Part shown: positions 7,835 through 20,769 of the stretch, one piece after another
How positions within the stretch are numbered: the first letter of the stretch is position 1
How the letters are laid out: each line of letters opens with the position of its first letter
The notes under the pieces: generated by a model
Database searches by the model: none
Told to the model about the DNA's origin: nothing
What the model saw: only the letters and a program-made list of their open reading frames with translations
Source of the DNA: a virus
Lineage: Duplodnaviria; Caudoviricetes
IMG/VR virus record: IMGVR_UViG_3300032326_000646
Location: 1-57,781 of that record
Length of the DNA: 57,781 nt
Direction: 5' to 3' (one strand)
Made by a program: the position numbers and the translations under genes

Positions 7835-9298
7835 GTGGCAGCAGAAAATATTGATAATACCGTCAATGGTACTGGGCTATTCCCTACAAAAGTTCCTGGT
7901 CTTTCAGATGCAGCAGATATTCAGGCAGCACTAAGACTATATCATTATGGATCATACACCTATGATGGCTCCAACACCAACAAAGCAAATCTTGTAACAC
8001 CTTCTATTGCTAAACACCTGCAAAATCTTGCTGATGCAGATGCAGCAGAGATAGTAAATAGGAATACTGCTATTGCAAATGCAATTAGTACAGCAACAGG
8101 AGCATACTCAGACCTTGCTGGAAATGCTCTTGAATGGAATTCTGTTGATGAAAGATTTGATGTTGAGCCAAGAATTGCAAATACTGGAGTAGTTTTAACA
8201 AAAACAGCAAACTTTACTTTGTCTCCAAGCGATGTTGGTAAAACTATTCTTTTGTATTCTTCAGATCCTATGACTGTAACACTTCCAGCAAACAATTCAG
8301 TAGAAATTCCAGTAGGATACTCTGTTGATATAATTCAAACAGGTTCTGGATCAGTAACTGTTTCTGAAGGTAGTGTTGCTGTTTCAATTAATAGCAAATC
8401 TAACATAAAGTCTTTAGATGGTCAGTATTCAAAAGGAACTTTAGTCAAAATAGACACCAATACATGGTTTTTTTTTGGAAACTTACTTAACAGTGTAACA
8501 CCAACACCTACACCTGTAGCCCCTACACCAGTTGCACCTACCCCTGTAGCACCTACCCCTGTAGCACCTACCCCTGTAGCACCTACCCCTGTAGCACCTA
8601 CCCCTGTAGCACCTACTCCAGTTGCTCCAACACCTGTAGCACCTACACCAGTTTCTCCAACACCTACAGAAACAACAACATACTGGGCTACAGGTTGCTG
8701 TCTTGGAGCCACCACCAATCGTCAGGTAACTGGAACAAGTACTGAAAATGCTATTGCTGCTGGTGTCAATGTAATTAATGCTTGTAACGGTTCAGGAGAA
8801 AATCTTGGGACTGTTCAAGAAGGTTCGTATACAACAACTAACAACATACCTACTTTAACTTGTACAGCCCCTCCTACACCTGTAGGACCAACAGTTTATG
8901 ATATCTATACTTATTGTGATCCAATATTTCCTGCCATGAGAGGTGGAGCGTATGGAACCCAATCAGCAAGTTCAAGTGTTAATGTTGGAACAACAACTAA
9001 TGCATCCTTAACTAGTGAGCAGATAGTCGCTCTCCTTGGTTATGGATCTGGTTGTCCGACAGTTCCTACCCCTGTAGCACCTACCCCTGTAGCACCTACC
9101 CCTGTAGCACCTACCCCTGTAGCACCTACTCCAGTTGCTCCAACACCTGTAGCACCTACTCCAACTGCTCCTGTTCCAACTCCAGGCGGTGGATGTGTAC
9201 CAGGAGAACTTTGTTACTCTGAATTTGATGGAAGTTGTATTAGTATTTGGACATATAACTCATCTTGTGGATGTGTATTCTCTAGTAGAGTATGCTAA
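7835..9298 (+). CDS. Fibre-like protein with adaptor domain, (PTPVA)n proline-rich repeats and Cys-rich domains
   Basis: GTG start with AAGGGTGA SD; adaptor ending WFFFGNL; 9+6 PVAPT units; Cys clusters. Confidence 0.8.
   Translation: MAAENIDNTVNGTGLFPTKVPGLSDAADIQAALRLYHYGSYTYDGSNTNKANLVTPSIAKHLQNLADADAAEIVNRNTAIANAISTATGAYSDLAGNALEWNSVDERFDVEPRIANTGVVLTKTANFTLSPSDVGKTILLYSSDPMTVTLPANNSVEIPVGYSVDIIQTGSGSVTVSEGSVAVSINSKSNIKSLDGQYSKGTLVKIDTNTWFFFGNLLNSVTPTPTPVAPTPVAPTPVAPTPVAPTPVAPTPVAPTPVAPTPVAPTPVAPTPVSPTPTETTTYWATGCCLGATTNRQVTGTSTENAIAAGVNVINACNGSGENLGTVQEGSYTTTNNIPTLTCTAPPTPVGPTVYDIYTYCDPIFPAMRGGAYGTQSASSSVNVGTTTNASLTSEQIVALLGYGSGCPTVPTPVAPTPVAPTPVAPTPVAPTPVAPTPVAPTPTAPVPTPGGGCVPGELCYSEFDGSCISIWTYNSSCGCVFSSRVC
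8497..8667 (+). repeat. 15-bp coding tandem repeat (CCTACCCCTGTAGCA), block 1
   Basis: Nine PVA units plus one PVS unit. Confidence 0.95.
9065..9185 (+). repeat. 15-bp coding tandem repeat, block 2
   Basis: Six PVA units with the same synonymous variants as block 1. Confidence 0.95.
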
Positions 9299-9332
9299 CT
9301 ATGGTATACTAGTTTAAAAGAAAGGATTTATT

Positions 9333-9560
9333 ATGACAGAGTCAATCGGCGAACTTACAAACATGAAAACTTATGCCATTATTGTAGATGGAGAATTTGC
9401 TTGTGTTTTAAAAATGCCTTCATTGGGTCATCCAAAAGTAGAAATGATATCAGCGGCACTAAGTAGTAATCCAGTCGTTGTAGATATGACTGATGAAGAT
9501 TTTCCAGACGACGGTATTGGATGGGTTTGGAACGGTTATCAACTAGAAAAATCATTATAA
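9333..9560 (+). CDS. Small fibre-associated protein
   Basis: YAIIVDGE...GWVWNG pattern typical of small proteins following tail fibres; TGGTATACT plus AAAGGA SD. Confidence 0.55.
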   Translation: MTESIGELTNMKTYAIIVDGEFACVLKMPSLGHPKVEMISAALSSNPVVVDMTDEDFPDDGIGWVWNGYQLEKSL

Positions 9561-9563
9561 CTC

Positions 9564-9803
9564 GTGGGTGAAAAATTAACTCCCTGGGAACAATATAAAA
9601 AAAATCTTGGAGAAACAAGGCCTTGGGATATAATAAATCCATCAGTTATAAAATCTTCTGAAGAAGAATCTTTAAAAAGATATGAGATATGTAAGTCTTG
9701 TCCAGAATTAATAAAACTTACGTCTCAATGTAAAAAATGTGGATGCTTTATGAAAATAAAAACAACATTGGCAGCAGCAGAATGCCCATTAGGAAAATGG
9801 TAA
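9564..9803 (+). CDS. Small Cys-rich metal-binding protein (DUF6171-like)
   Basis: RYEICKSC...QCKKCGCFM...CPLGKW. Confidence 0.65.
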   Translation: MGEKLTPWEQYKKNLGETRPWDIINPSVIKSSEEESLKRYEICKSCPELIKLTSQCKKCGCFMKIKTTLAAAECPLGKW

Positions 9804-9804
9804 A

Positions 9805-10404
9805 ATGATAAAAGAAGAAATTGCTCCAGGAATAGTTGTTTACAGCAATGTCATTCCTAATAGTGAAAATCTATATAAAGATATAGAAGAGGGTTTAGTT
9901 TCAGCAAACCTTGAATGGCAACAGGCATCAGTTAAAGAAATAGATACTCCAAAGGTAAATACAAACACAAGAGATACGCATACTTTTGGTGTTGACTATT
10001 TGGGTAAAGTTGATGATAGCACTCCATTAAGTCTATCTGAGTTTTTCTTGTTAAGTCTTAATAATATTTTTTTTAAAAGTTTTGATCCAGTAGAAAAAGA
10101 CTACATGGCATCATATGCAATGTTTGCTGACTCTCATGACTCATATGGAATTTTAAAATACGGCAAAGGTCAAAAATTTACAAATCATATAGATGATCAT
10201 AAAGACTACCATAGAAGAGTTTCTACAGTTTATTATTTAAATGATAATTATAAAGGTGGAGAAATAAATTTTCCAAGATTTAATATAAAATTTAAACCAA
10301 AAGCAAATCAAATGATCATATTTCCATCAACATATGTTTATAATCATTCTGTAAGTGAAGTTACCGAAGGATTTAGATATGCTGTAGTTAGTTGGATGAA
10401 ATAA
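9805..10404 (+). CDS. 2OG-Fe(II) oxygenase, prolyl 4-hydroxylase-like
   Basis: HID (HxD), YLNDNYKGGEINF, distal NH and RYAVVSW. Confidence 0.9.
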   Translation: MIKEEIAPGIVVYSNVIPNSENLYKDIEEGLVSANLEWQQASVKEIDTPKVNTNTRDTHTFGVDYLGKVDDSTPLSLSEFFLLSLNNIFFKSFDPVEKDYMASYAMFADSHDSYGILKYGKGQKFTNHIDDHKDYHRRVSTVYYLNDNYKGGEINFPRFNIKFKPKANQMIIFPSTYVYNHSVSEVTEGFRYAVVSWMK

Positions 10405-11219
10405 TGAAAAATGCTATAGTCTATTCTATCAATGCAGTTGGAGAAAAATTTGAAAATTCTGTTAGATTTAGACAGTTGCTTTATTCTGTTTCAAGACTTA
10501 GGAGATTTAATAAAAATATAGATATCTATGCATATGTTTCAGATAAAGATTTTTTTTTGAATACAGAGAAATATAAAAATTTAAATATTATTTTTAAATA
10601 TTTTGAAATACCTATATATAATATATCAAATACTCATTACAGCAAATCAAACAATGCAGAAAAACTTTGGCATAGATGGTCAAACACTTTTGAAGTTTTA
10701 AAAAGTTCAGAATACGATAATGTTCTTTATATTGATACCGATACTGTTTTTTATAATGACCCAGAAATATTATTTTCAATTTACGGAAACACAAACTCTA
10801 TATACACTAAAGAAGACAATTGTTATGAGATTATGAACTCTTTGGGTGTAGATAAAAATGGGCTTAATGCTGGGCAGGTTTTGTTTAGTAAATCTTTGTT
10901 GTTTTCAGAATCTGGAATGTTTGAGTTTATGGATAACTATATAGACTTAAAATTAAAAGAAATAAGAACAACGATGCCAACAGAAATGTATCACCAGACC
11001 ATATGGGTTATTGATCAGTATGCTCTTTATGAATATTATAAATCTATAGATATTCCAGTTAAAATTTATGATAAAAAACATGTTATGTTGCACTTAGAGC
11101 CTTGGATAAATGAAACATCTGAATTAGTTTTACATCATTATTTAAATAGAAATTATAAGGTTGCAGTCCCAGCAGAGTTTGCTTATGATAATATCTTAGA
11201 AAGGATATTTCAAAAATGA
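10404..11219 (+). CDS. GT-A fold glycosyltransferase (GT8-like)
   Basis: YIDTD (DxD), LNAG, DQYAL, late HHY; TAATG-coupled to the oxygenase. Confidence 0.8.
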   Translation: MKNAIVYSINAVGEKFENSVRFRQLLYSVSRLRRFNKNIDIYAYVSDKDFFLNTEKYKNLNIIFKYFEIPIYNISNTHYSKSNNAEKLWHRWSNTFEVLKSSEYDNVLYIDTDTVFYNDPEILFSIYGNTNSIYTKEDNCYEIMNSLGVDKNGLNAGQVLFSKSLLFSESGMFEFMDNYIDLKLKEIRTTMPTEMYHQTIWVIDQYALYEYYKSIDIPVKIYDKKHVMLHLEPWINETSELVLHHYLNRNYKVAVPAEFAYDNILERIFQK

Positions 11220-11749
11220 AAGAATTTAAAGATTTTTTGCCAATTGATTTAGCAAAAAAATATTATAACTTTGGACTAGATGTTGTATCTGGTAGGTCTG
11301 GACTAAATTCTGTTTGGACAAACCAGGCTTGGGATAAAGGAATAGTAGAGGATAGTTCTGTAGTAGTGTGTATTAGACTTCCAGATGAGTTTTTACCTCA
11401 ACTACAATCAATTCTTGAGGATAAATTAATATTCGATAAAAATAGAGATATGCCATTAATCAGTTCAAGATCTGCAATGGTTTATGTTTGGTCAAAAGAC
11501 TCCTACATTCCAGTTCACTCAGACGGTGTATATAGTAGAGCCATTACTGTGTATTTAAATGAAACCTGGCAATATAATGATGGAGGAATGTTTAACTGGC
11601 TTGATCCAGAAAAGAATGAATGGAAAAACATTGAGCCAACATTTAATAAGGCCGTTATAAATGATTCAGGGTATTCCCATGGAATAACACCTGTAAAGTC
11701 ATCTAATAATAGAATAACCTTACAGGTGTTTTTAAGTCCGCTTACTTAG
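11216..11749 (+). CDS. Second 2OG-Fe(II) oxygenase, prolyl hydroxylase-like
   Basis: HSD, VYLNETWQYNDGG, SHGITPV, RITLQ. Confidence 0.88.
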   Translation: MKEFKDFLPIDLAKKYYNFGLDVVSGRSGLNSVWTNQAWDKGIVEDSSVVVCIRLPDEFLPQLQSILEDKLIFDKNRDMPLISSRSAMVYVWSKDSYIPVHSDGVYSRAITVYLNETWQYNDGGMFNWLDPEKNEWKNIEPTFNKAVINDSGYSHGITPVKSSNNRITLQVFLSPLT

Positions 11750-12305
11750 GAAATTTAGCCATCCAAGATTTGGTTCTTGGAGTAATGCCTTTCCACGAAG
11801 ACCAGTCTTCCCCACCGTTTGTCATATAGTATGCAATCTCTGCATTCTTTACGGGATTAAATAACTCAGCATTTGACTCAAGATCAAACTTAGTTCTTCT
11901 GTCAGGACCAAGGTCGTCAATCATATTAATTTGAAACATGCCGTAAGACGAGTCACCAGTCTTATGGTTTCCGTTAAAAGCCAATGGTCTTCCATTAGAT
12001 TCTTTTTTGGCTACTGCCCAAGCAACAACAAGGTCTTTACCCTTGAAGCCCACTAGCGAAAGCAGTTCCTTTAGTTCTAAATCAGTCAGAGAAACCTTGT
12101 TCTCAAAACTCTCTAGTTTTTTTGTCTTAGAAACCAAAAAAACCTCTTTCGAGGCGGTTTCCGATGTCTGAGCCTGTTCAAGGCTAAGGTTATTTTTCGT
12201 ACTTAGTTCTGGGGTAGCATTAGCAGCATTAGAAGATATTGCTACTAATAATACAATACTGAGTGTGCTAATGATCTCTTTGTTTCTTTCGATAAATTTA
12301 ATCAT
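11742..12305 (-). CDS. Exported lysozyme-like lytic transglycosylase (SLT family)
   Basis: N-terminal signal-like segment; catalytic ES (KKESNG), GMFQIN, WSSW; AAGGAGG SD before ATG 12305; TGTTATACT on the minus strand at 12354-12362. Confidence 0.85.
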   Translation of the reverse strand: MIKFIERNKEIISTLSIVLLVAISSNAANATPELSTKNNLSLEQAQTSETASKEVFLVSKTKKLESFENKVSLTDLELKELLSLVGFKGKDLVVAWAVAKKESNGRPLAFNGNHKTGDSSYGMFQINMIDDLGPDRRTKFDLESNAELFNPVKNAEIAYYMTNGGEDWSSWKGITPRTKSWMAKFPK

Positions 12306-12409
12306 AGTTTCCTCCTTAGAAAACAATAACACCCTGGTAGGTGTCTAATACCAAGTATAACATAAAATTTTATCAAAAGTCAACTTTAGATGGTGGTATA
12401 ATAAATTCT

Positions 12410-12949
12410 ATGCCTAACTCACCACTTAATTATCCTACTATGCAATATCCTCTTGCCTCAGACCCAGTTAATGTCCATGGAGATTTTAAGGTTTTAGTTG
12501 ACGCATTAACTAATATTTTACCACCACTAGGAATGACAAATTTTTCTTCAAAAGTTAAAAATAACTCTGGGGTTTCTTTAATTCCAGGAACTCCAGTATT
12601 TATTTCTGGAAGTTTATCTGGTTTACCAACGGTAGCAAAGTATAATCCATCAAGCCCTACACATAACCCAGATGTACCAATTCTTGGAGTTGTTCAAAGT
12701 ACCATAGAAAATAATGCAGAGGGCGTTGTTATCGTGTCTGGTGTTTTACAAATGAATTTAACAGGAATTGCTTCTACAGTAGGTGCAAAAATTTATGTTA
12801 ATGATAGTGGAAATCTTGTAGAAGGTCGCCCATTGACTGGTCCAGCAAGATATATTGCAGTAGTTGCAAACTTAGGCCAACAGGGTTTGCTGATTGTTCA
12901 AGCAAAAGGAAACGGTACTTGGGGTGCACTCAAAGACGGTTTATCGTGA
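12410..12949 (+). CDS. Virion protein (capsid-cement/DUF2190-like beta fold)
   Basis: GTPVFISG...GVVIVSGVL...GAKIYV; leaderless ATG 12410. Confidence 0.55.
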   Translation: MPNSPLNYPTMQYPLASDPVNVHGDFKVLVDALTNILPPLGMTNFSSKVKNNSGVSLIPGTPVFISGSLSGLPTVAKYNPSSPTHNPDVPILGVVQSTIENNAEGVVIVSGVLQMNLTGIASTVGAKIYVNDSGNLVEGRPLTGPARYIAVVANLGQQGLLIVQAKGNGTWGALKDGLS

Positions 12950-12961
12950 TATAATAACATT

Positions 12962-13378
12962 ATGGCAACTTTAAGAGGATCTCAAACATTATACGACATA
13001 GGAAATAAACCACCTACAGTTATTTGGACTGTTGTTCGTGGAGATACTTCTGGTTTTAAGGTTTATGTAACTGATGATGCTAAAGAGCCACTAATTCTAA
13101 AAGGTGAAGGATCTGAGTGGGATATTTCAATGAAGATCAAAAGACCAACACTTGAAAAAGACAAAGGAATTATTACTGATAACGCAACAACAATAATGGC
13201 ATTACATCCAGTTGCAGACGAAGATGATCTGGTCGGAGAATTTACAGTTTGGCTTACAGCAGAAGAATCTAATGTCTTGCAGACAGGAGACATCTTTGAT
13301 ATTCAGGTTAGCGACCCAACAAGAGTCTGGACAGTTTGCCAGGGTAGCATGAAGATTCTTGAAGATGTAACAGATTAA
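12962..13378 (+). CDS. BppU-N-like virion protein
   Basis: VVRGDT...FDIQV...GSMKILEDVT. Confidence 0.6.
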   Translation: MATLRGSQTLYDIGNKPPTVIWTVVRGDTSGFKVYVTDDAKEPLILKGEGSEWDISMKIKRPTLEKDKGIITDNATTIMALHPVADEDDLVGEFTVWLTAEESNVLQTGDIFDIQVSDPTRVWTVCQGSMKILEDVTD

Positions 13379-13602
13379 TGGCAACAGCAACACTACTAGA
13401 TAACTTAAAAGGTAAAACAGAAAAGATATTTCCAATAGACTACCCACTAGTTCAGGTAGAAGACTTTACAAGAAATACAGTAATTAGTGAGATACTTCCA
13501 TTTAGGGTTAAGTTTACAGCCATTCAGATTCAGGCTATTGGTTTGGGAAATACCCCAGCAATTCCTCTCCAAGTTATTGGCTACAGTAACTATATTCTTT
13601 AA
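13378..13602 (+). CDS. Small virion-associated protein
   Basis: TAATG coupling to the upstream gene. Confidence 0.6.
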   Translation: MATATLLDNLKGKTEKIFPIDYPLVQVEDFTRNTVISEILPFRVKFTAIQIQAIGLGNTPAIPLQVIGYSNYIL

Positions 13603-13634
13603 TTATCTAATTAAAAGGGTGATATAATTACGGC

Positions 13635-14081: not shown

Positions 14082-14097
14082 CTAAGGAGATATAAAA

Positions 14098-15744
14098 ATG
14101 GCAACAGTAAATAAAGATTTTAAGATTAAGAGTGGACTTATCGTTGAAGGCCTACAAGGTACAATCAACGGTGAGACAATTCTTACAGAAGTAGCAGGAG
14201 ATCAATACATCCTTGACCTCATTAGCGGAGAAACACTTATCAAGTCTGTTGATACTGATGATTTTACAGTAACCGCTGGACTACTTACAGTAGCAGCAGG
14301 TTCAGACATTGCAAGAAGTGGTGACATCACCAATGCAATTGATGCACTTACAACAGACGTAATTGAAGAAGGTATTAATAACCAGTACTTTACAACAGCA
14401 AGAGTTGACTCACACCTTTCAGGTGGAGCAGGAATTGACTACCAAGCAGGAACAATCTCTGTTGCTACTGGAACTGGTATCACTTTAGAACAAAATGATT
14501 TTATTGCAATTGACCGTAATACAGTAGACAACTGGTACGATGCAAACGGTGCAGCATCAGCAGCACAGGCTGCAGCAGAACTAACTGCTTCAGGAGATGC
14601 AACAACTAAGGCTAACGCAGCAGAGCAGAATGCTAAGGACTATGCAGACGACTTGATCAATGATGCATCAAACCTTTCAACAGAGGTTTGGTCAGCATAC
14701 AAGACAAACACAGAAATTGGTTTGGCTCAAGCAGCAGCAGAACTACATGCAGACAATGCAATTGCTGCACTCGTAGATTCAGCACCAGCAACCCTTGACA
14801 CTCTTAACGAGTTGGCTCAGGCACTTCAGGATAATCCAGATATTATCTCTGACCTTCAAGATATTGCAGCAGGCAAGCAAGATACGCTAACAGCAGGATC
14901 AAACATTGAAATTACTGGACTAAACGTAATCAATGTAACTGGTCTAGATGCAGCAGATATTTCAGACTTTAACACTGCAGCACTTTCAGCAACAGCAGCA
15001 GCATACGATGTTGCAGGAGCAGCAGCCACAGCACAAGGCAACGCCGAAGACTACGCTGATGGACTTGCAGTTAACTACGATGCAGCAGGTTCTGCTTCAA
15101 CAGCACAGACTAATGCTGAATCTTTTGCTACAAATGCAATTAATGCACTTGACACAGACGATATTGAAGAGGGTTCAACTAATCTTTACTTCACAGAGCA
15201 ACGTGCAAAAGATGTAGCACAAGGTCTTCTTGTTCAAGCAACAAAGACTAATATCTCTATTACATCAGATCCAATGGGTGGAATAATTATCACTGCAGAA
15301 AACGGTGTAGCAGATTCTGATACTGATGACCTTGATGAAGGTACAACAAACAAGTACTTTACAGATGTTCGTGCAGTAGACGCTCTTGAAGCAGTTGTTC
15401 CAAACTTTACAGCAGTTGAGTTAAACTCAGTTGCTAAGCAGGTCGCAGCAACACTTTCAGCACCAACAGCAGGAATTCAAGTAGCACACGCCTTCGCAAA
15501 GGCTGACTACCGTTCAGCAGAATACCTTGTAAAGGTTGCCTACGGAACACATACTGAAATCTCAAAGGTCCTTTTGACACTTGATTCTTCAGATAACATT
15601 GCAATTACTGAATACGGAATTGTTGGAACAAATGGCTCAGCGTCATCAATTTCAGCAGGCGTTTCAGGAGCAAATGTACAACTTCAAGTAACAACTGCCA
15701 ACGTTAACTCAACAGTTACTGTTGTCGGAACATTGCTTGCGTAA
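14098..15744 (+). CDS. Tail fibre protein (alanine-rich coiled coil)
   Basis: TDxxxEGxxNxYFT repeats x3, APATLDTLNELA motif, AAGGAG SD. Confidence 0.75.
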   Translation: MATVNKDFKIKSGLIVEGLQGTINGETILTEVAGDQYILDLISGETLIKSVDTDDFTVTAGLLTVAAGSDIARSGDITNAIDALTTDVIEEGINNQYFTTARVDSHLSGGAGIDYQAGTISVATGTGITLEQNDFIAIDRNTVDNWYDANGAASAAQAAAELTASGDATTKANAAEQNAKDYADDLINDASNLSTEVWSAYKTNTEIGLAQAAAELHADNAIAALVDSAPATLDTLNELAQALQDNPDIISDLQDIAAGKQDTLTAGSNIEITGLNVINVTGLDAADISDFNTAALSATAAAYDVAGAAATAQGNAEDYADGLAVNYDAAGSASTAQTNAESFATNAINALDTDDIEEGSTNLYFTEQRAKDVAQGLLVQATKTNISITSDPMGGIIITAENGVADSDTDDLDEGTTNKYFTDVRAVDALEAVVPNFTAVELNSVAKQVAATLSAPTAGIQVAHAFAKADYRSAEYLVKVAYGTHTEISKVLLTLDSSDNIAITEYGIVGTNGSASSISAGVSGANVQLQVTTANVNSTVTVVGTLLA

Positions 15745-15779
15745 TAAAAAATAAAAATAGTTGGAAGAGGGAGTAGTAA

Positions 15780-16229
15780 ATGGCAACAGTCGATAAAGAC
15801 TTCAAGGTCAAGAATGGGTTAGTCGTTGCAAACGGCGGTACATTCGGAGATGCAGTAACAGTAGGAGCCCCAACTCTTGCTGATCATGCAACAACCAAGG
15901 AGTATGTAGATTCAAAATCTATGGCAGTTGGACCTACTCCTCCTTCTTCACCAACTAATGGTACCCAGTGGTTAGACACTGGAACAAACAGAGTTAATTT
16001 TTATTACAATGGTTCTTGGTACACCCAAGCAACTATTGATGATACAAATAACTTACCACAACACATTCACGATACCGCAATTGATGGAACTGGTTTCATA
16101 GTATCTCAGTTCTATGAAGGCGGATCATTTAACAGCCCATTGGGTGTAGGTTTGGATGCAGGTGGACCCTCCACAACAGAGTGGACAGTTGTATTTGATG
16201 GCGGTAGTGTAGTAGATAACTTCAATTAA
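15780..16229 (+). CDS. Short fibre/adaptor protein
   Basis: N-terminus paralogous to 14098; HATTKEYVD; PPSSPTNGTQWLDT; DGG-type motifs. Confidence 0.65.
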   Translation: MATVDKDFKVKNGLVVANGGTFGDAVTVGAPTLADHATTKEYVDSKSMAVGPTPPSSPTNGTQWLDTGTNRVNFYYNGSWYTQATIDDTNNLPQHIHDTAIDGTGFIVSQFYEGGSFNSPLGVGLDAGGPSTTEWTVVFDGGSVVDNFN

Positions 16230-16285
16230 AATTGATGTTATAATAATATAAGAAAATGGGCAGCCCCCATAAGGAGAAATAAAAT

Positions 16286-17863
16286 ATGGCAACAAGAATG
16301 CAACAGCGCAGAGGAACTGCAGCACAATGGACGGCTGCAAACCCAGTATTGGCAGCAGGTGAAATTGGTTTTGAAACAGATACAAATAAGTTTAAGATGG
16401 GTAATGGTTCCTCAGCATGGTCTGCATTGACATACTTTGCTAACGCAGCAGAACTAGCAGCCATTATTGATGGCGCACCATTAGCGCTTGATACTCTTAA
16501 TGAGTTAGCAGCAGCACTTGGTGACGACCCAAACTTCCTAACATCATTAGCAACAAATGCAAGAGTTGATCAAATAGTCCTTAATGGGCAATCAGTAACT
16601 ACTCAAGCAATTACTAAGGCAGAGTCAGAACTTTTAAGCCATGCACAAGACGAAACAAATATTCATGGAATTGCAAACACAGCAGATCTTGCAACAAAGA
16701 CATATGCAGAAGGCGCTGCAGATGCTGCAGTAGATGCTGCAATAGCAGCACTAACAAAGTCTTCAGTAGGTCTATCAAACGTAGACGATACACAAGATGC
16801 TTTTAAGCCAGTTTCAGCAGCACAGGCTTCCGCAATTGCTACAGCAAAAACTGAGGCTATTACAGCAGCAGGCCAAGCAGCAGATACTAAGATTTCAGAT
16901 CATAATACTGATGAAACAAATGTACATGGTATTCCAGATACATCTGTTCTCGTAACACAAACAGAACTTACAAATGCTATTGCAGGTGTAACAGTGGATC
17001 AGTCAGAACTTGCTGGAACAGGTCTTCTATGGGATGGTGTTAATGAGCAATTTACTATTGACACAACAGTTGCAACTAAGACATATGCAGATAGCGCTGT
17101 TTCAACTCACAATGATGAAACCACATCTGTTCACGGTATTTCAGATACAGCACAACTAGCATATAAGAATGCAGCAAATCAAACATTTACAGGAAATCTA
17201 GAAGTTGACGGAAACCTTGTTGTTGATGGAGACATCACAGTTAATGGTGGAAGTTTTAACGCATCAGCAACATCTATCACAATCGAAGATAATATGGTTC
17301 AACTTGCTCACCAGAATGCAGCAAACACTGTAGACCTTGGTCTTGTGGTTGCATATACAGAAGGCGTAGTTGGAAAGCATTCGGGTATCGTAAGAGACGT
17401 ATCTGATGATAAGTGGAAGTTGTTTAAGGGTGTAACAACAGAACCTTCAACAACTGTAGACTTTACTCAGGGATCATTTGATGATCTTAAGGTTGCAGCA
17501 CTTGAGGCAACAACAGTAACCCCATCTTCTGGTATCGTATTCTCAGACGGTACACAGACAAAGTTGGGAGTTCCATCTGTAACAACATTTGCAACAGCAA
17601 TCTCATCATCTGCAACATTAGCAGCAGGAGAAGCAGACAAGTTTGTTCCACTAACTGGAGCAGTTACAATCACACTTCCTGCAACAGGATACTCAACTGG
17701 ACAGTCAATTGACTTCTATCAGGAATCAGGCACAGGAGCACAATTTGCCTCAACAAATAGCGTTGTCGGTACACCAGGTTTGAAGTTTAGAACTACAAAC
17801 TCAGTAGTAACAGCAATGAAGACTTCAAGTGGATGGTTGGTCTTCGGAGACCTATCAGCATAA
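16286..17863 (+). CDS. Tail fibre with Mtd-N-like N-terminal domain and C-terminal adaptor domain
   Basis: QQRRGTAAQWTAANPVLAAGEIGFETDTNKFKMGNG; HxxDETxxHGIxxT repeats; ends WLVFGDLSA. Confidence 0.8.
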   Translation: MATRMQQRRGTAAQWTAANPVLAAGEIGFETDTNKFKMGNGSSAWSALTYFANAAELAAIIDGAPLALDTLNELAAALGDDPNFLTSLATNARVDQIVLNGQSVTTQAITKAESELLSHAQDETNIHGIANTADLATKTYAEGAADAAVDAAIAALTKSSVGLSNVDDTQDAFKPVSAAQASAIATAKTEAITAAGQAADTKISDHNTDETNVHGIPDTSVLVTQTELTNAIAGVTVDQSELAGTGLLWDGVNEQFTIDTTVATKTYADSAVSTHNDETTSVHGISDTAQLAYKNAANQTFTGNLEVDGNLVVDGDITVNGGSFNASATSITIEDNMVQLAHQNAANTVDLGLVVAYTEGVVGKHSGIVRDVSDDKWKLFKGVTTEPSTTVDFTQGSFDDLKVAALEATTVTPSSGIVFSDGTQTKLGVPSVTTFATAISSSATLAAGEADKFVPLTGAVTITLPATGYSTGQSIDFYQESGTGAQFASTNSVVGTPGLKFRTTNSVVTAMKTSSGWLVFGDLSA

Positions 17864-17887
17864 TTTAGAAAAACAAAGGGGAACAAT

Positions 17888-19096
17888 ATGTCAAAGCAAG
17901 CAGGTAGAATGAGTCAAGGAGCAAACGACTTTTTGGCTCCAGGAACACCAACAATAACATCAGTAACAGATGTTGGAACAAACAGAGCATACAATAATGG
18001 TGCAGTAGATGTAGCATTCAATCCAACAGGCGTATATTCAGCATCATCTTATACGGTTCTATCTAGTAGCGGACAAACTGTTACTGGATCTTCTTCCCCT
18101 ATTCGTGTAGAAAATCTTTTGTCTGCAACAGCCTATACATTTACAGTTAAGGCTGCAAATGATGGCGGTGAGTCTGCATATTCTTCAGCCTCATCCCCAG
18201 TTACTGTAACAACTGTTCCAGCAACACCTTCAGCACCATCAGCATCTTCTCCATCAGCAGGAACAGACAGCGTTTCTTGGAGCGCACCAGCAAATGGTGG
18301 AAAAGCAATTACTAATTATCGTTGGTCATCATCAGATGGAAAGGCTGGGGACACCTCTGGTCTCTCAGCAAGTGTTGGCCAAGAGCAGGGAACTGCACAA
18401 ACATACAACGTATATGCTACAAATGCTAACGGAAACTCAGCCACATCTCCTGCATCAGGATCTGTCACTACGGTATTCTCTGCATTCGGTGCCTTCGGTG
18501 CTTTTGGAGCCTTTAGTGCATTCGGTGCCTTCGGTGCTTTTGGAGCCTTTAGTGCATTCGGTGCTTTTGGAGCCTTTAGTGCCTTCGGTGCTTTTGGAGC
18601 CTTCGGTGCTTATAACAAGTCTATAAGCATGCACACATTAGTTCTAACTACACAAGGATTTACACAAGCCTCAAATCTTCAGGTAGGAGATCAACTTGTT
18701 TCTACAGAAGTTCCTGGATTGGGAATTGATTTTACAATGCAAGATATTCAAAACTGGACAGGAAATCCATCAGAACTTCAAATGGTTCCTGATAAAGTTA
18801 CAACAATTAGACACATCGGGTCTTCACAAGCAGAACAGGCTGTTTCTATTAACGGAGAATTCTATTCAGGATCTCACTATATGCTAGTAAAGAGAGATGG
18901 CATTTCTAGAATGATTGCAAGTAGAGACCTTTTGACTACAGACGAATTATGGTCTTCAGACATAAATACTTGGACTCCTATAGTTGAGTTAACAATTTCA
19001 GATATTCCTCATGAGGTTATATCTATCAACTGTGAACCTTATGACATGTTCTATACAGATCATTTCTTGGTTTACGACGGTTATCAAACAGAATAG
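17888..19096 (+). CDS. FN3-domain protein with (F-G/S-A)15 repeat and C-terminal Hint (intein-like) domain
   Basis: Two FN3-like repeats (YTFTVKAAN, YNVYATN); Hint block A SISMHTLVLT, LQVGDQL, block B SGSH, C-terminal VISINCEPYDMFYTDHFLVYD. Confidence 0.8.
   Translation: MSKQAGRMSQGANDFLAPGTPTITSVTDVGTNRAYNNGAVDVAFNPTGVYSASSYTVLSSSGQTVTGSSSPIRVENLLSATAYTFTVKAANDGGESAYSSASSPVTVTTVPATPSAPSASSPSAGTDSVSWSAPANGGKAITNYRWSSSDGKAGDTSGLSASVGQEQGTAQTYNVYATNANGNSATSPASGSVTTVFSAFGAFGAFGAFSAFGAFGAFGAFSAFGAFGAFSAFGAFGAFGAYNKSISMHTLVLTTQGFTQASNLQVGDQLVSTEVPGLGIDFTMQDIQNWTGNPSELQMVPDKVTTIRHIGSSQAEQAVSINGEFYSGSHYMLVKRDGISRMIASRDLLTTDELWSSDINTWTPIVELTISDIPHEVISINCEPYDMFYTDHFLVYDGYQTE
18476..18610 (+). repeat. 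9-bp coding tandem repeat with 36/27-bp higher-order periodicity
   Basis: FSA FGA FGA FGA FSA FGA FGA FGA FSA FGA FGA FSA FGA FGA FGA. Confidence 0.95.
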
Positions 19097-19104
19097 AAAT
19101 ATCT

Positions 19105-19611
19105 GTGCTTGAACTTGTAGACACTTCGGGTATTAAAAACCTTGAATATCCAAAAGAACTTTCTGGAGCCTGGGTTTACTATGTTTTTTTTAAAAATCAT
19201 AAAAATTTAGGTGGAATAGTTTGTGCTTATTTTAATGATAAGTATCCAAGCGGGTCTGTTTATGTAGGAGATCAAATACTAAATGATTATCCCGATGTTT
19301 ACGGTACATGGAAAAAAGATGATGAGTTTAACAAAGTTGTTATGGATAGGGTTGCGGTTTCCCCAATTCTTAGGAATAAAGGTATTGGAAGAGCGGCAGT
19401 ATTTTATGGAGCAAAAGTTCTAGAGTCTTGTTTTAATAAAAAAGTTTCTCACGAGTATGGTTCTGAAATTGGAAATAGGCTTTATACATCTGCTTTTAGT
19501 GTTGATATTGTTGAAGATACATCTGTAGAAAATTCAATAGACTTAAAAGAAGATCTTTTTTATCAGCCTATATACCCGTATATATTTTTTGGCAGAAGGG
19601 TTTCAAAATGA
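19105..19611 (+). CDS. GNAT-family acyltransferase
   Basis: Motif A VAVSPILRNKGIG and SEIGNRLY. Confidence 0.75.
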   Translation: MLELVDTSGIKNLEYPKELSGAWVYYVFFKNHKNLGGIVCAYFNDKYPSGSVYVGDQILNDYPDVYGTWKKDDEFNKVVMDRVAVSPILRNKGIGRAAVFYGAKVLESCFNKKVSHEYGSEIGNRLYTSAFSVDIVEDTSVENSIDLKEDLFYQPIYPYIFFGRRVSK

Positions 19612-20024
19612 TTAGTTATAACGTTAGTAATATAAATGAAAACATTTTAAATTCAATAATTCATCAAGTAAAGTTTATGTGCAAAGAAAATAATATAAAT
19701 TATGAAAAACAAAAGTATAACCTTTTATTTTCTAATGAAAAAGTATTTTATAAAAACAATGATGTAAAATTTACTTCTGGAATGAAAAAATACTTATGTT
19801 TTTATGGAAAAATATATTTAAATAAAAAAGAAATAATTGTTGAAAAAATACATTCAGAAAATGACTTATTTGTTTTTACTCCAGAAAGTAATGATATTCT
19901 AATAATCTCTGGAGGCATAGATAATTCAACAATAGTAAAAGATGATGAAGAGTTGTTGCATTTTTATGTTGCCCCAAGCCATTTACTTGAGTTACAAGAT
20001 CCAAAATTGTGGCAAAGACTTTAA
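19608..20024 (+). CDS. Hypothetical protein, possibly a degenerate DSBH/2OG-oxygenase-like fold
   Basis: FYGKIYL...TPESNDILII...FYVAP spacing resembles phage DSBH proteins, but His ligands are not evident. Confidence 0.4.
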   Translation: MISYNVSNINENILNSIIHQVKFMCKENNINYEKQKYNLLFSNEKVFYKNNDVKFTSGMKKYLCFYGKIYLNKKEIIVEKIHSENDLFVFTPESNDILIISGGIDNSTIVKDDEELLHFYVAPSHLLELQDPKLWQRL

Positions 20025-20055
20025 TATGATATAATTAAAATAACGAAAGGCTTAT

Positions 20056-20769
20056 ATGAATACTCTAAGATTCTTACAAATGTATCCACAATTGCTAAAT
20101 ATTGTTCCAGAGCCAGAACCAGGAACAAAAAATATTCCTTCTTGGTATAAAGAGCAGCCAGCCATTGCAGGAAGTGATATTCCTGATAGAGGAGTCATGA
20201 GGCTTACTGTAAAGAAGTGTCAGGCATTTTTTGATGCAATGGCAATGGGATATATATTAAAAGTTCCATGCGATATATATATAGACACTACTGATGGCAA
20301 TATCAATATTCAACTTCCTGCCAGTATGAACAAATTCTATTCTTTATTAATCAGCGAGCATTTAGAAGAGCAGGTATCTCATTTGCCCATAGACAAAGAC
20401 ATTTATTGTAACAAAATATTAAGAATTCATCCCACATGGATGGTTCAAACTGATAAAGGCTATAGCACATTCTTCACAAACCCAATACATCAAAGCCCGT
20501 CGCCACTAAAGGCTATTGACGCTGTAGTTGACACTGATAACTACTTTACTGATGGGCATCTTTCATTTTTAGTTAAAAAGAATTTTAAAGGAACTATAAA
20601 GCAAGGAACTCCCATGTTTCAGGTTTTTCCATTTAAAAGAGAAGATTGGACAATGGAAATAGATAAAAACTTTTCAGCAAAAAAAGTAGAAGAGCAAAGA
20701 AATAAGGTTAGATCTACTTTTCAAAATGGATATAGGCTTAAGTTTTGGCAAAAGAAAATCTTTAAGTAA
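20056..20769 (+). CDS. Conserved phage protein (dUTPase-like beta fold, DUF6065-like)
   Basis: IPSWYK, TVKKC..FFDAM..GY, GYSTFF, VVDTD, GTPMFQVFPFKREDW. Confidence 0.55.
   Translation: MNTLRFLQMYPQLLNIVPEPEPGTKNIPSWYKEQPAIAGSDIPDRGVMRLTVKKCQAFFDAMAMGYILKVPCDIYIDTTDGNINIQLPASMNKFYSLLISEHLEEQVSHLPIDKDIYCNKILRIHPTWMVQTDKGYSTFFTNPIHQSPSPLKAIDAVVDTDNYFTDGHLSFLVKKNFKGTIKQGTPMFQVFPFKREDWTMEIDKNFSAKKVEEQRNKVRSTFQNGYRLKFWQKKIFK

Follow-up and report, generated by a model that had tools for sequence, protein, structure and literature searches.

The described systems with which the locus analysed here can be compared include Hint domains. For example, in the passages of the two reports drawn on here, the Tetrahymena BIL2 domain needs no ATP to make an isopeptide bond to lysine (PMC8616854), and hedgehog Hint domains transfer their upstream domain to cholesterol (PMC7765530). 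Another example is that of the glycosyltransferases of Nanopelagicales phages, for which the section of the source concerned with them proposes DNA protection or cell-wall modification (PMC10202952). A further parallel is the hydroxylation of animal or Bacillus collagen-like proteins.

The window (the whole stretch of 57,781 nucleotides that was analysed) belongs to a large, freshwater, siphovirus-like phage whose host, by inference, is probably an actinobacterium, and the region from 7835 to 20769 is a piece of its fibre-gene cluster. In a first-pass annotation, this region had been described as two parallel cassettes of adaptor, repeat protein and modifying enzymes with a RiPP-like logic. 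The repeat proteins are indeed modular and located inside the fibre-gene cluster, and the enzyme runs are AT-rich as described, with GC contents of 0.26-0.33 (9501-11500) and 0.23-0.33 (19001-20000) versus 0.42-0.46 in the repeat genes. However, the two loci are not parallel, (FGA)n being devoid of a conserved hydroxyl, amine or proline for decoration, and the RiPP comparison is an analogy only, since a leader/core organisation was not seen. The sequences show that the two repeat proteins, named here gA and the 17888 protein, draw on one module repertoire, made up of a fibre-end beta domain of ~95 aa, FN3 domains, beads rich in Cys, linkers rich in Pro, short-period aromatic repeats and, at the C-terminus, a Hint domain. 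The reading favoured here, whose chances as a whole are about even, is that the linkers of gA are modified by the enzymes of the adjacent island, and that the 17888 protein is docked to a fibre and self-cleaved by its Hint domain. All the modification chemistry is what we infer from gene neighbourhood.

The gA Fibre Protein and the Shared Beta Domain

All features given below lie on the plus strand unless otherwise stated. The gA fibre protein (7835-9298) consists of a conserved N-terminal part of ~220 aa followed by Pro/Thr-rich linkers that alternate with Cys-rich beads (12 Cys). The adaptor beta domain, domain A (8186-8485, residues ~118-217), is directly followed by an array of ten PTPV[A/S] units (8507-8656, residues 225-274; TRF period 15/30, score 207-210), so that the reported fusion of this domain to (PTPVA)n holds; a second array, of six PTPVA units, is found at 9065-9154 (residues 411-440; TRF score 116-148). 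Residues 1-225 have 232 homologues, whose C-termini differ in how long they are and in the domains they contain (PASTA, FN3, Flg_new), and the Pro-rich ones (22/22 distinct) each have several Pro-rich segments with Cys-containing stretches between them.

The second copy of the beta domain, domain B (17585-17860, residues ~434-525), is the C-terminal end of a fibre protein with an Mtd_N N-terminus (16286-17863; PF18454, 4.7e-15, and many PHROG tail-fibre families). The pairwise likeness of A and B is weak (BLASTP, 27% over 91 aa, E 0.003), but profiles made from 24 and 42 family sequences, respectively, were aligned by hhalign over 90 columns with 98.7% probability and an E value of 2.9e-16, versus 0.23-0.79 for one reversed and ten column-shuffled controls, and the proposed homology of both adaptors is thereby borne out. 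Domain A matches PHROG tail-fibre and minor-tail families, namely the C-terminal ends of phrog_21510 (2.1e-12), 29238, 8780 and 18179, as well as the ends of minor tail proteins from Gordonia phages. Domain B terminates its gene just before the repeat gene, as had been noted, and both are separate genes, with a TAA stop in the former and an AAGGGG Shine-Dalgarno site before the ATG at 17888. The beta domain is present in cis in gA, and for the 17888 protein on the preceding fibre. In relatives with upstream DNA, the 17888-type gene lies directly downstream of a 16286-type gene; an ORF holding domain A/B precedes 44 of the 49 Hint genes with upstream DNA (the domain being C-terminal in 32), and one further Hint gene holds the domain itself. 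The C-terminal 110-115 aa of the 16286 protein are 85-89% identical in relatives with diverged shafts, and the 17888 protein would dock onto this conserved end domain.

The Island Downstream of gA

The genes that follow gA start with a small, family-less ORF of 75 aa (9333-9560), with no match in Pfam, PHROG or NCBIfam, which is variable across relatives and among gA loci has homologues only in L002 and L010. The first conserved island gene encodes a small Cys-rich protein (6 Cys) of the DUF6171 family (9564-9803; PF19668, 1.4e-6; phrog_13558, 2.1e-15). Next is a P4H-like 2OG-Fe(II) oxygenase (9805-10404; PF13640, 1.7e-18; H128-x-D130 ... H181), the best PDB sequences for which are those of the Bacillus anthracis prolyl 4-hydroxylase (3itq/5hv0, E 2.3e-5). 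A second 2OG-Fe(II) oxygenase (11216-11749; PF13640, 3.7e-9; H101-x-D103 ... H155 ... R166) was related to the P4H-like family by hhalign (95.7% probability, E 9e-9). Of the reported order oxygenase/glycosyltransferase/oxygenase, both oxygenases are thus firm; the gene between them (10392-11219) encodes a probable, weakly assigned GT-A glycosyltransferase of GT8-like type, whose Pfam match lies below the cut-off (PF01501, E 4e-4, 20.4 versus 24.3 bits), with no match in PDB even by profile; an invariant D115-T-D117 is shared by 4 homologues. On its right side the island is bordered by a conserved minus-strand gene for a lysozyme-like/SLT protein with a hydrophobic N-terminus (11742-12332; PF18896, 3.8e-16).

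Under the favoured reading, the (PTPVA)n linkers would be the substrates of this hypervariable island. The P4H-like oxygenases would turn linker proline into hydroxyproline, and the glycosyltransferase (GT8-like here; in relatives a PF11397-type enzyme, with sugar-nucleotide enzymes or a sulfotransferase) would put O-glycans on Hyp or Thr. The product might be an extensin- or mucin-like spacer, stiff, protease-resistant and antigenically variable, that holds the Cys-rich distal beads off the virion.

Comparison with relatives involved 34 gA loci, 33 of them closed on the right, in which a collagen-like gene, two further genes, gA, the island and the SLT gene follow one another in conserved order; the SLT gene is on the opposite strand in 33/34 (L020 stops short of its position). 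All 33 closed loci keep the Pro-rich "beads-on-a-string" fibre gene with a hypervariable island of 1.7-6.7 kb after it, and 18 combinations of repeat unit and island architecture occur among them, in agreement with the idea of a swappable enzyme cassette. Every closed island has a DUF6171 homologue and a P4H-like gene (19), a C1 gene (20), or both, C1 being an uncharacterised HxD..H protein; overall, a 2OG or C1 gene lies within 1.5 kb downstream of 22/32 distinct DUF6171 copies. A recognisable glycosyltransferase is present in 22/33 closed islands (PF11397 in 16, GT8-like in 6), and a glycosyltransferase or sugar-nucleotide enzyme in 30/33. Other enzymes found in relatives are an epimerase/dehydratase, a HAD-nucleotidyltransferase, a sulfotransferase and, in one island, a radical SAM/SPASM enzyme, a class that typically modifies peptides. 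To judge by these gene contents, the island points to protein or glycan modification.

The strongest rival explanation, which is unlikely although it deserves real weight, is that the islands are ordinary hypervariable "moron"/auxiliary-gene sites, that their enzymes act elsewhere (on host envelope or polysaccharide for superinfection exclusion, on other virion proteins, on metabolites or on DNA), and that the repeats are unmodified flexible spacers. In line with this, the islands show strong mosaicism and a high AT content, and the enzyme set at the gA locus turned out to be largely independent of the repeat unit, contrary to the covariation that the first-pass annotation had proposed to look for, (PTPVA)n being found with four island architectures and (PT)n with five. 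P4H-like homologues are also common in cyanomyoviruses, with generic annotation only (266 phage records); sugar-nucleotide enzymes and the sulfotransferase suit polysaccharide work equally well, and the non-repeat roles proposed for glycosyltransferases in the part of the Nanopelagicales phage study cited above point the same way. On the other hand, all 33 closed loci have the island immediately downstream of the Pro-rich gene, the oxygenases are of the PF13640 (P4H) type rather than Tet/JBP, and the radical SAM/SPASM enzyme also speaks against this explanation. All gA homologues are Pro-rich except one, so that the gA locus offers no negative control; in L030 the protein at the gA position has an F/P repeat and a Hint domain in place of the Pro-rich segments, and the gA-position proteins of L030 and L087 both end in F/P repeats plus Hint.

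Repeat Proline Content and Oxygenase Number at the 17888 Locus

The 17888 gene (17888-19096) encodes a protein of 402 aa with two FN3 domains (fn3, 2.5e-6), an array of fifteen F[G/S]A units (18476-18610, residues 197-241; 11 FGA and 4 FSA; TRF scores 130-185) and a Hint domain. Its relatives were confirmed in 100 cases in viral contigs, and 80 of them, representing 79 loci, were kept. They include proteins with an internal duplication in the N-terminal region and homologues with PV linkers and Cys beads (L049-61); in the L041-43 proteins, a gA-like bead precedes (FGFTP)n and Hint.

Here, the number of oxygenase genes follows the proline content of the repeat, including a shift from 0 to 5 genes, a further point against the auxiliary-gene explanation. 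P4H-like genes were counted within 8 kb downstream of 36 distinct 17888-type genes, each followed by 6.9 kb or more of sequence. One or more were present after 15/16 genes whose repeats reach 12% Pro versus 2/20 below that value, a threshold set after the data were seen. The extremes range from no P4H-like gene within 8 kb in any of the 18 FGA-dominated relatives (Pro at most 11%) to five downstream of (FFPP)n-type repeats (33-37% Pro). In L087, six PF13640 matches were verified in the DNA that follows the repeat gene. The proposed test for covariation of repeat type and enzymes thus gives a positive signal at this locus (Spearman rho 0.86; Fisher p 5e-7, kinship ignored), which comes down to five phylogenetically independent pairs on well-supported branches, with 3-4 in the same direction and 0-1 in the opposite one (sign test, p about 0.125). 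Block recombination can co-inherit neighbouring DNA without any functional link; L044 lacks a 2OG gene although its repeats contain Pro, and in several relatives the 2OG genes, one or two in number, do not adjoin the repeat gene but lie past the RNR gene.

The Hint Domain and Its GNAT-Fold Neighbour

The distinctive feature of the 17888 protein is its Hint domain, not enzymatic decoration. This autoprocessing domain (18620-19081, residues 245-398) has a Hint/BIL fold, as profile, AF2 and Foldseek results agree: the profile hits the gp41-1 intein (1.8e-5) and a C. thermocellum BIL (9.4e-5) in PDB, and the AF2 model (pLDDT 89.7) is best matched in Foldseek by Tetrahymena BIL2 (6y75; E 2e-7, TM 0.70/0.74) and 2lwy, then by inteins and hedgehog (1at0). 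In the alignment, position 1 is Ser245, block B has His330, and the C-terminal His-Asn is missing, with Tyr-Asp in its place. Ser or Cys occupies position 1 in 18/18 aligned sequences and in 109/117 library representatives; in 110/117 the Hint domain is C-terminal, and of the 117 stretches of 60 aa upstream of it, 59 are F-rich and 22 P-rich. From this sequence, cleavage of Ser type is expected at K244|S245, where an N-to-O acyl shift would lead to self-excision, leaving the hydrophobic (FGA)15 array as a free C-terminal tail. Since the domain would thus cut itself off from the tail, it is proposed to be a removable solubilising/assembly module.

Next to the Hint gene is that of a GNAT-fold protein of 168 aa (19105-19611), with an R90-N-K-G-I-G motif. 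The GNAT assignment made earlier stands as regards the fold, by this motif and by the AF2 model (pLDDT 68), for which the 50 VIA matches listed are overwhelmingly GNAT-fold acetyl/acyl-transferases (Z 6.9-8.3), although the Pfam score falls below threshold (18.0 versus 20.7). The GNAT-fold gene comes next after 29/45 distinct Hint-bearing genes and after 0/9 Hint-less ones, and it overlaps or abuts the Hint gene across proteins merely 37-40% identical; it may serve Ser-type Hint proteins as an accessory partner.

This association is also what might be expected if the Hint domain were a ligation device, an improbable alternative in which a nucleophilic acceptor (a virion-protein lysine, a lipid or a glycan) would resolve the ester or thioester arising at K244|S245, perhaps assisted by the acyltransferase-like GNAT-fold neighbour, so that the F-rich tail would become covalently tethered. 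BIL2 as closest structural match, and the BIL2 and hedgehog precedents of acyl transfer in the cited passages, would fit; however, the acceptor remains hypothetical, the GNAT-fold gene is missing and hence dispensable in 16/45 cases, and distant members no longer have the RxxGxG motif. In addition, the Ser nucleophile gives an oxyester less reactive than a thioester, which weighs against ligation and against the predicted Hint cleavage alike; the missing C-terminal His-Asn also counts against this cleavage.

Other Genes of the Region

A collagen-like fibre protein of 243 aa (5701-6432; PF01391, Collagen, 5.9e-8) forms the left part of the conserved backbone, with homologues 69-100% identical in gA loci whose flank reaches that far upstream. 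That the P4H-like oxygenases act on this or other collagen-like fibres and not on PT/FP repeats is very improbable: the gene lies two genes upstream of gA, is kept in the loci that reach it, and the PDB entries nearest to the 9805 protein carry the name procollagen-proline dioxygenase/P4H (B. anthracis), but the collagen-like gene is constant while there are between 0 and 5 oxygenase genes depending on how Pro-rich other repeats are, its Gly-X-Y run has proline mostly at X with a single X-Pro-Gly site, and the oxygenase genes are downstream of gA, not of the collagen-like gene.

Between 19105 and 20769, no oxygenase or glycosyltransferase was recognised. The 138-aa protein at 19608-20024 (GC 0.23), formerly labelled DSBH-like, is family-less, with no match in Pfam, PHROG or NCBIfam; that label is not sustained by hhalign, in which comparison with the 2OG family gave an E value of 0.046 and a probability of 1.2%. 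An Atlas lead to Hint_2 (0.91) was rejected, as hhalign gave an E value of 0.41, the same as for shuffles. In close relatives this gene co-occurs with the GNAT-fold gene. It and the following gene (20056-20769) are at most candidate members of the system. The product of the latter, a beta-fold protein in the first-pass annotation, is DUF6065-like (phrog_7084, 7.9e-42; Atlas cluster with DUF6065) and, rather than part of a repeat-specific cassette, belongs to a family widespread in viruses. PF19541 matches two paralogues in L087, and proteins from 49 haloarchaeal virus records (HF2-type) and from one cyanophage are 30-32% identical to the product of the 20056 gene.

Phage proteins with aromatic repeats and a C-terminal Hint domain

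The more distinctive result of this analysis is a large and unnamed family of phage proteins which, judging from sequence, combine short-period aromatic or proline repeats with a C-terminal, BIL-like Hint domain of Ser or Cys type. The member found in the window (17888–19096) is composed of two FN3 domains, 15 F[G/S]A triplets and the Hint domain. Among 79 loci fetched for this type of gene, it is located directly after a fibre gene of the 16286–17863 type in the loci with upstream DNA. The family layout includes one to three FN3 domains, short-period aromatic repeats, sometimes PV linkers with Cys beads, and usually a conserved C-terminal domain of about 160 aa; the repeat units are (FGA)n, (FGFTP)n, (FGVFGFSP)n, (FFPP)n / (PPxFFS)n and (PGFS)n. 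A collagen-like Gly-X-Y helix was rejected for (FGA)n, since Ser replaces Gly in 4 of the 15 triplets and the units of the relatives at the same position have 5 (FGFTP), 8 (FGVFGFSP) or 4–6 (FFPP, PPxFFS) residues. The 17888 gene shares a common frame with the 16286 fibre gene, and the idea of a read-through fusion was dropped because a TAA stop and a Shine-Dalgarno sequence precede its ATG.

The C-terminal domain is a Hint domain by both profile and model. An 18-sequence profile matched, in the PDB, the gp41-1 intein (E 1.8e-5), a Clostridium thermocellum BIL domain (9.4e-5) and a PolB intein (8.5e-4). In addition, the AF2 model of the window domain (pLDDT 89.7) gave 39 PDB matches in Foldseek at E ≤ 0.001, and every one listed belongs to the inteins or to the BIL, Hog or Vint domains; Tetrahymena BIL2 (6y75, TM 0.70/0.74) and another BIL domain (2lwy, TM 0.66/0.77) ranked first, and many inteins and hedgehog were also matched. 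At position 1, 14 of the 18 aligned domains have Ser and the other 4 have Cys, and one of these two residues is found there in 109 (Ser 60, Cys 49) of the 117 representatives listed with at least 60 aa upstream of the domain. In the window position 1 is Ser245, followed by the block A pattern, and block B reads S-G-S-H330, this His being present in most of the 18 aligned domains and replaced by Glu in L068 and L094. A His-Asn ending is found only in the Cys forms (L065, L068, L069, and L094), the Ser forms having [Tyr/His/Phe]-Asp. The window domain ends in Tyr-Asp-Gly, just four residues before the end of the protein, and thus lacks the His-Asn and C-extein of inteins and A-type BIL domains; a true intein is excluded because the C-extein is absent.

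Pfam Hint models barely detect this domain (best E 0.006–0.013, for 1–3 of the 18 members). The proteins are named "hypothetical protein" in their sources, their precomputed Pfam annotation displays fn3 only, and a few structural neighbours in BFVD have been automatically named "Hint domain containing protein". The profile found 1,416 cluster representatives at E ≤ 0.001 and 563 at E ≤ 1e-10 (clusters at 50% identity), so the architecture of aromatic repeat plus C-terminal Hint domain is common. Among the 117 representatives listed, the domain is the very C-terminus in 110, and the 60 residues ahead of it are F-rich in 59 and P-rich in 22. With cleavage predicted at one defined bond, the domain is a possible self-removing tag or serine-based protein-ligation tool.

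A shared fibre-end domain links the two loci

The first-pass annotation had noticed the same small beta domain in two genes of the window, and the comparison of their profiles bears it out. One copy (domain A, residues ~118–217) belongs to gA, a fibre protein encoded at 7835–9298 in which it is followed by (PTPVA)n linkers and Cys-rich beads; the other (domain B) ends the 16286 fibre. Pairwise, both domains are 27% identical over 91 aa (E 0.003), and the alignment of profiles built from 24 and 42 sequences of related loci reached 98.7% probability with E 2.9e-16 over 90 columns, versus E 0.23–0.79 for one reversed and ten column-shuffled controls; therefore, domains A and B are homologous. The repeat arrays were also found as claimed, (PTPV[A/S]) 10 and 6 times and (F[G/S]A) 15 times, and the AT-rich runs of enzyme genes after the repeat genes are visible in the base composition. 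Tail-fibre, minor-tail and structural families of PHROG carry the shared domain at their extreme C-terminus. By its sequence relatives it is a fibre-end domain, beyond which gA has gained a C-terminal extension. A second short motif is located upstream of the end domain, gA residues 77–115 resembling residues 225–263 of the 16286 fibre (38% identity over 39 aa, E 2e-5; window 7835–8180 and 16958–17074).

Further links are provided by hybrid proteins at the gA position. In L030 and L087 these proteins end in F/P repeats and a Hint domain, and the one of L087 is followed by a small ORF, a DUF6171 gene and a PF13640 gene. Another example is given by three loci (L041:967–3801, L042:1162–3906, and L043:1069–3813) with gA-position proteins of 914–944 aa that lack the gA N-terminus; their last bead, which resembles the second bead of gA, precedes (FGFTP)n and a Hint domain. 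Linkers, beads, aromatic repeats and Hint domains are therefore interchangeable modules on, or at, the same fibre-end domain. The genomes of these last three loci each hold two Hint-terminated proteins. By a Rosetta-stone-type argument, we infer that the end domain of the 16286-type fibre is the docking site of the 17888 protein, because the modules are fused in cis in gA, the end domain of the 16286 fibre is conserved (85–89% identical) where the shaft has diverged, and, among the 49 Hint genes for which upstream DNA is available, 44 come after an ORF that contains domain A or B and one more contains the domain itself.

Genes downstream of the Hint protein

The genes that follow the 17888 gene had been described as GNAT, DSBH-like and beta-fold, and as a second enzyme cassette parallel to that of gA. 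The first of them (19105–19611) follows 29 of 45 distinct Hint-bearing genes versus none of 9 Hint-less ones; it recurs beside Hint domains merely 37–40% identical to that of the window, and it is absent from all four Cys-type forms examined. Its GNAT label stands as regards the fold, which is backed by the structural neighbours of a moderate AF2 model (pLDDT 68). When aligned by VIA-align with 48,161 chains, nearly all of the 50 matches listed were GNAT-fold acetyl- or acyl-transferases, with Z 6.9–8.3 (values below 8 can reflect a common arrangement) over about 100–120 residues, and the top Foldseek matches were mostly acetyltransferases (best E 1e-3). On the other hand, the protein is below threshold in Pfam (18.0 vs cut-off 20.7) and NCBIfam (15.7 vs 171), and the search of its profile against PDB sequences gave only E 0.18. 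The RNKGIG motif (RxxGxG) is intact in the window protein, and its glycines are lost in the homologues of L041 and L101 type. The complex prediction for the Hint domain and the GNAT-fold protein scored 0.00 (mark 0.32), a value that carries no weight for or against an interaction.

The DSBH-like description of the next gene (19608–20024) was not borne out, as the protein has no family match and hhalign against the 2OG family gave E 0.046. In the Atlas, 27 of its 30 feature matches are Hint_2 clusters at 0.91; a second Hint domain was rejected, with an hhalign E of 0.41 against the Hint alignment that falls within the range of eight shuffles (0.023–0.61). The "beta-fold protein" (20056–20769) could be identified as a DUF6065-type viral protein, also present in HF2-like haloarchaeal viruses, and a hidden DSBH oxygenase was rejected for it (hhalign against the 2OG family, E 0.45). 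Its homologues, 30–32% identical, occur in 49 records of haloarchaeal tailed viruses of HF2 type and in one cyanophage record, an unusually wide spread across viruses. The (FGA)n repeat offers no conserved side chain for modification, with scattered Ser, Ala, and Asn replacements of Gly; therefore, the run 19105–20769 is not read as a decoration cassette, and the image of two parallel cassettes does not hold.

The hypervariable enzyme island of the gA locus

Residues 1–225 of gA as query led to 34 viral loci, the ORFs of which were called by script (labels C0–C21 are those of this analysis). The gene order is kept in them: a collagen-like gene, two genes, gA, an island, an SLT gene on the opposite strand and the downstream fibre genes. 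All but one of the 23 distinct gA homologues have a conserved N-terminus followed by several Pro-rich arrays with Cys-containing stretches between them, the arrays including (PTPVA)n, (PT)n, (PVT)n, (PTPTA)n, and (PTPPS)n; L030 is the one that departs from this, carrying instead an F/P repeat with a Hint domain. In 33 loci the island is closed, and it spans 1.7–6.7 kb. A DUF6171 gene is present in all 33 closed islands, as is at least one of two other genes, P4H-like (19) or C1 (20), the latter coding for an HxD..H protein of the relatives. Other members are a PF11397 transferase (16 loci, 6.7e-21), the GT8-like protein (6 loci, sub-threshold), an NAD epimerase/dehydratase with two unknown proteins of 315–343 aa (9 loci, Pfam), Sulfotransferase_2 (3 loci, Pfam), a cupin (3 loci, Pfam below cut-off, 24.9 vs 27.2 bits), and, in one locus each by Pfam, a HAD-nucleotidyltransferase fusion and a radical SAM/SPASM enzyme. 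Repeat unit and island architecture form 18 combinations, four architectures being found for (PTPVA)n and five for (PT)n; (PVT)n alone occurs with a single enzyme pair, P4H plus cupin, in 3 loci. The island is therefore swappable, as had been proposed for the enzyme cassettes, and biochemically coherent, yet the set of enzymes is unmatched to the repeat unit.

In the window, the two genes labelled as oxygenases after the Pro repeat are solid PF13640 matches. Gene 9805 scores 67.8 bits (cut-off 27) with the iron triad H128, D130 and H181, its best PDB sequences being those of the Bacillus anthracis P4H (E 2.3e-5), and gene 11216 scores 37.9 bits with H101, D103 and H155. For gene 10392, labelled as a glycosyltransferase, the Pfam match to GT8 lies below threshold (20.4 bits, cut-off 24.3); a DxD motif is present and invariant. 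Searches against PDB sequences gave no match for this GT8-like protein, either as single sequence or as profile, nor for the PF11397-type protein of L002. C1 displays H-x-D ... H by eye, and its interpretation as a hidden DSBH oxygenase found no support in profiles (hhalign against the 2OG family, E 0.23).

Several features of the island deserve a separate mention. DUF6171, a small Cys-rich protein (9564–9803 in the window; L002–L035, L087, and L109), is encoded by the first conserved gene in every island. A P4H-like or C1 gene is located within 1.5 kb downstream, on the same strand, for 22 of the 32 distinct DUF6171 copies; second copies elsewhere in L025–L035 lie on the opposite strand, with a 2OG gene nearby in L026 and L029. 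The DUF6171 protein may be a metal-binding helper of the oxygenases. The literature search did not find the term "DUF6171", and for "PF11397" it found one unrelated paper. In 33 of 34 loci the island is bounded on the right by a constant gene, that of the SLT/lysozyme-like protein (11742–12332 in the window, minus strand), which has a hydrophobic signal-like N-terminus. The largest island (L021:12453–17144, 6.7 kb) holds the HAD-nucleotidyltransferase fusion and the radical SAM/SPASM gene between DUF6171 and the PF11397 transferase; a SPASM enzyme beside a protein of Cys-rich beads may point to peptide crosslinking, through thioethers or otherwise. Regarding the RiPP-like logic that had been proposed, the candidate substrates are structural proteins of 400–1000 aa, and this gene of L021 is the only RiPP-type enzyme seen.

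Proline content and number of P4H-like genes

A covariation of repeat type with enzyme family, proposed in the first-pass annotation as a check, is not seen at the gA locus, with its 18 combinations, and is seen at the 17888 locus, where the number of P4H-like genes follows the proline content. For each distinct 17888-type gene, the Pro fraction of the F-rich repeat and the P4H-like ORFs within 8 kb downstream were scored, the latter by an HMM built iteratively from the 9805 protein. From 54 distinct genes scored, 10 with less than 6.9 kb downstream and 8 without the N-terminal tree region (L101–L114) were removed, leaving 35 loci plus the window; loci were collapsed only when the protein was identical, near-identical ones being kept. 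At least one P4H-like gene is found downstream of 15 of 16 repeats with at least 12% Pro, a threshold set after the data had been seen, versus 2 of 20 below it and 0 of 18 in the FGA-dominated subset (Pro ≤ 11%); six repeats with 33–37% Pro are followed by five such genes each. Both the correlation between proline content and gene count (Spearman rho 0.86) and the Fisher p of 5e-7 are without correction for kinship. Mapped on a tree built from the N-terminal FN3 region, the Pro state shows nine changes and the oxygenase state seven; well-supported branches provide only 5 independent pairs, the second trait going the same way in 3–4 and the opposite way in 0–1 (sign test p ~0.125). Recombination, moreover, can move adjacent DNA together, a caveat on this covariation; in some relatives, oxygenase genes are found beyond the RNR gene. 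In L087:9408–14484, six PF13640 paralogues and two DUF6065 paralogues (by Pfam) come in one run directly after the (FFPP)n-Hint gene, and genes for a Peptidase_S74 fibre and a Laminin_G_3 protein come next; a seventh PF13640 protein is encoded in the gA-position island. DUF6065 may be part of the same chemistry as these PF13640 paralogues.

Peptidyl-proline hydroxylation by the P4H-like enzymes is suggested only indirectly, by their likeness to the B. anthracis P4H and by this covariation. The earlier observation is largely right, all of its chemistry being read from genes, and the idea of a decorated fibre is plausible, a covariation signal that is real, if statistically thin, now speaking for proline hydroxylation. 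The dosage pattern (0, 1–2 or 5 oxygenase genes for 0%, ~15%, or ~35% proline) is a testable enzyme-substrate prediction. A much broader reading, which we consider quite improbable as a whole, is that of an extensin- or mucin-like fibre coat made by two coupled post-translational routes, the decoration of Pro repeats and a Hint-mediated covalent transfer of tails. By the first route, the Pro-rich repeat spacers would be decorated by sets of prolyl hydroxylases and glycosyltransferases whose dosage is matched to them. In the second, the C-terminal BIL-type Hint domain would turn the preceding peptide bond into an ester or thioester, helped in some lineages by the GNAT-fold protein, and the aromatic-repeat tail would be passed covalently to an acceptor (a virion lysine, a lipid or a glycan). 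If true, this second route would give phages an equivalent of Hedgehog cholesterylation or of BUBL isopeptide conjugation. Hydroxylated and glycosylated linkers, if present, would represent a hydroxyproline-based decoration of a bacteriophage virion, undescribed as far as our literature searches show, and swappable enzyme sets could diversify the surface chemistry while leaving the fibre gene unchanged.

Comparison with known systems

Mycobacteriophage virions are reportedly O-glycosylated, with glycosyltransferase genes beside structural genes and low-complexity extensions of virion proteins as proposed substrates. The loci described here share with them the phage glycosyltransferase genes near structural genes, the low-complexity candidate substrates and, probably, actinobacterial hosts. 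In contrast, the candidate substrate in the window is a fibre with long Pro-rich tandem arrays, and islands of this type add P4H-like oxygenases, DUF6171 and sugar-nucleotide enzymes. Another example is the chlorovirus PBCV-1, which is said to have a prolyl 4-hydroxylase and Pro-rich repeat substrates. According to an unpublished note in the reference list of PMC7019647, hydroxyproline was not detected in PBCV-1 particles. The likeness consists of a virus-encoded 2OG oxygenase of P4H type together with virus proteins of short Pro-rich tandem repeats. PBCV-1 is, however, a giant virus of eukaryotes in which enzyme and substrate genes are uncoupled, whereas here the enzyme genes are direct neighbours of the repeat genes, and their number varies with the latter. 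Mimivirus collagens, which are part of fibres, are hydroxylated and then glycosylated. In PMC9546862, on collagen hydroxylysine glycosylation, Mimivirus is described as encoding both collagens and the enzymes that modify them, a likeness to the present case in that one virus encodes repeat proteins and candidate modifying enzymes. The differences are its lysyl instead of prolyl chemistry, the Gly-X-Y collagen repeats and the eukaryotic host.

PF11397 is presumably linked to Gnt1 of the Skp1 prolyl-hydroxylation/GlcNAc pathway (PhyA plus Gnt1). In 11 relatives (including L002, L011, L012, L021, L022, L025–27, L029, and L030), the genes for a P4H-type oxygenase and a PF11397 transferase are adjacent; on the other hand, the window has a GT8-like gene instead of PF11397, and in the eukaryotic pathway just one proline, in one protein, is the target. 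As for the Hint domain, the Peptidase_S74 chaperone of endosialidase-type tail spikes, which cleaves itself by means of a Ser-Lys dyad, is also a C-terminal module of fibre proteins expected to remove itself after assembly, and L087 has an S74-bearing fibre in the same cluster. The two modules are unrelated in fold and chemistry, an acyl shift being predicted for the Hint domain instead of the S74 mechanism. BIL domains (Amitai 2003; Dassa 2004) are described in PMC7765530 as located in hypervariable regions of non-conserved proteins, A-type BIL domains having His-Asn and B-type ones lacking the C-terminal motif and cleaving at the N-terminus. The phage domains resemble them, including Tetrahymena BIL2, in the Hint fold, the hypervariable region and the Ser or Cys at position 1 (PMC7765530, PMC8616854). 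By the description of the types in PMC7765530, Cys forms with His-Asn are similar to the A-type and Ser forms to the B-type. They differ in that the phage domain is found at the extreme C-terminus of fibre-associated proteins (110 of 117 listed), after short-period aromatic, Pro or Gly repeats.

Genome setting and host

The record has 57.8 kb and an estimated completeness of 53% (IMG/VR). Downstream of the loci studied, it encodes a class II RNR (20860), a portal (27073), a prohead protease (29309), a major head protein (30643), a minor tail protein (46163) and a DnaB-like helicase; between the head genes and the minor tail gene there is an ORF of 2,930 aa (36776–45568), probably the tape measure, in which case the tail would be unusually long. 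The nearest relatives of the major head protein are Streptomyces phages of ~127 kb (41–43% identity), matches to the "adaptor" domain occur at the ends of minor tail proteins from Gordonia phages and in a fibre of a freshwater Actinomycetia phage of 129 kb, and PASTA domains are present in several gA homologues; because of these three features, we infer with modest confidence that the host is an actinobacterium. The collection of prokaryote genomes gave a single match (L115), a 10-kb contig of a Gammaproteobacteria-labelled MAG from a lake metagenome, probably a phage contig carried into the MAG bin. This contig is too weak for naming a host, and it is not good evidence against an actinobacterial one. 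Among phage records, no match was found by megablast with the whole region, or by tblastn with gA, the 17888 protein and its Hint domain, where the low-complexity filter is a possible contributor. Finally, a conserved protein of 1,248 aa (22919–26665), with no PHROG match, is encoded between the RNR gene and the head module, and some relatives have an insertion of one or two 2OG oxygenase genes immediately ahead of this type of gene.
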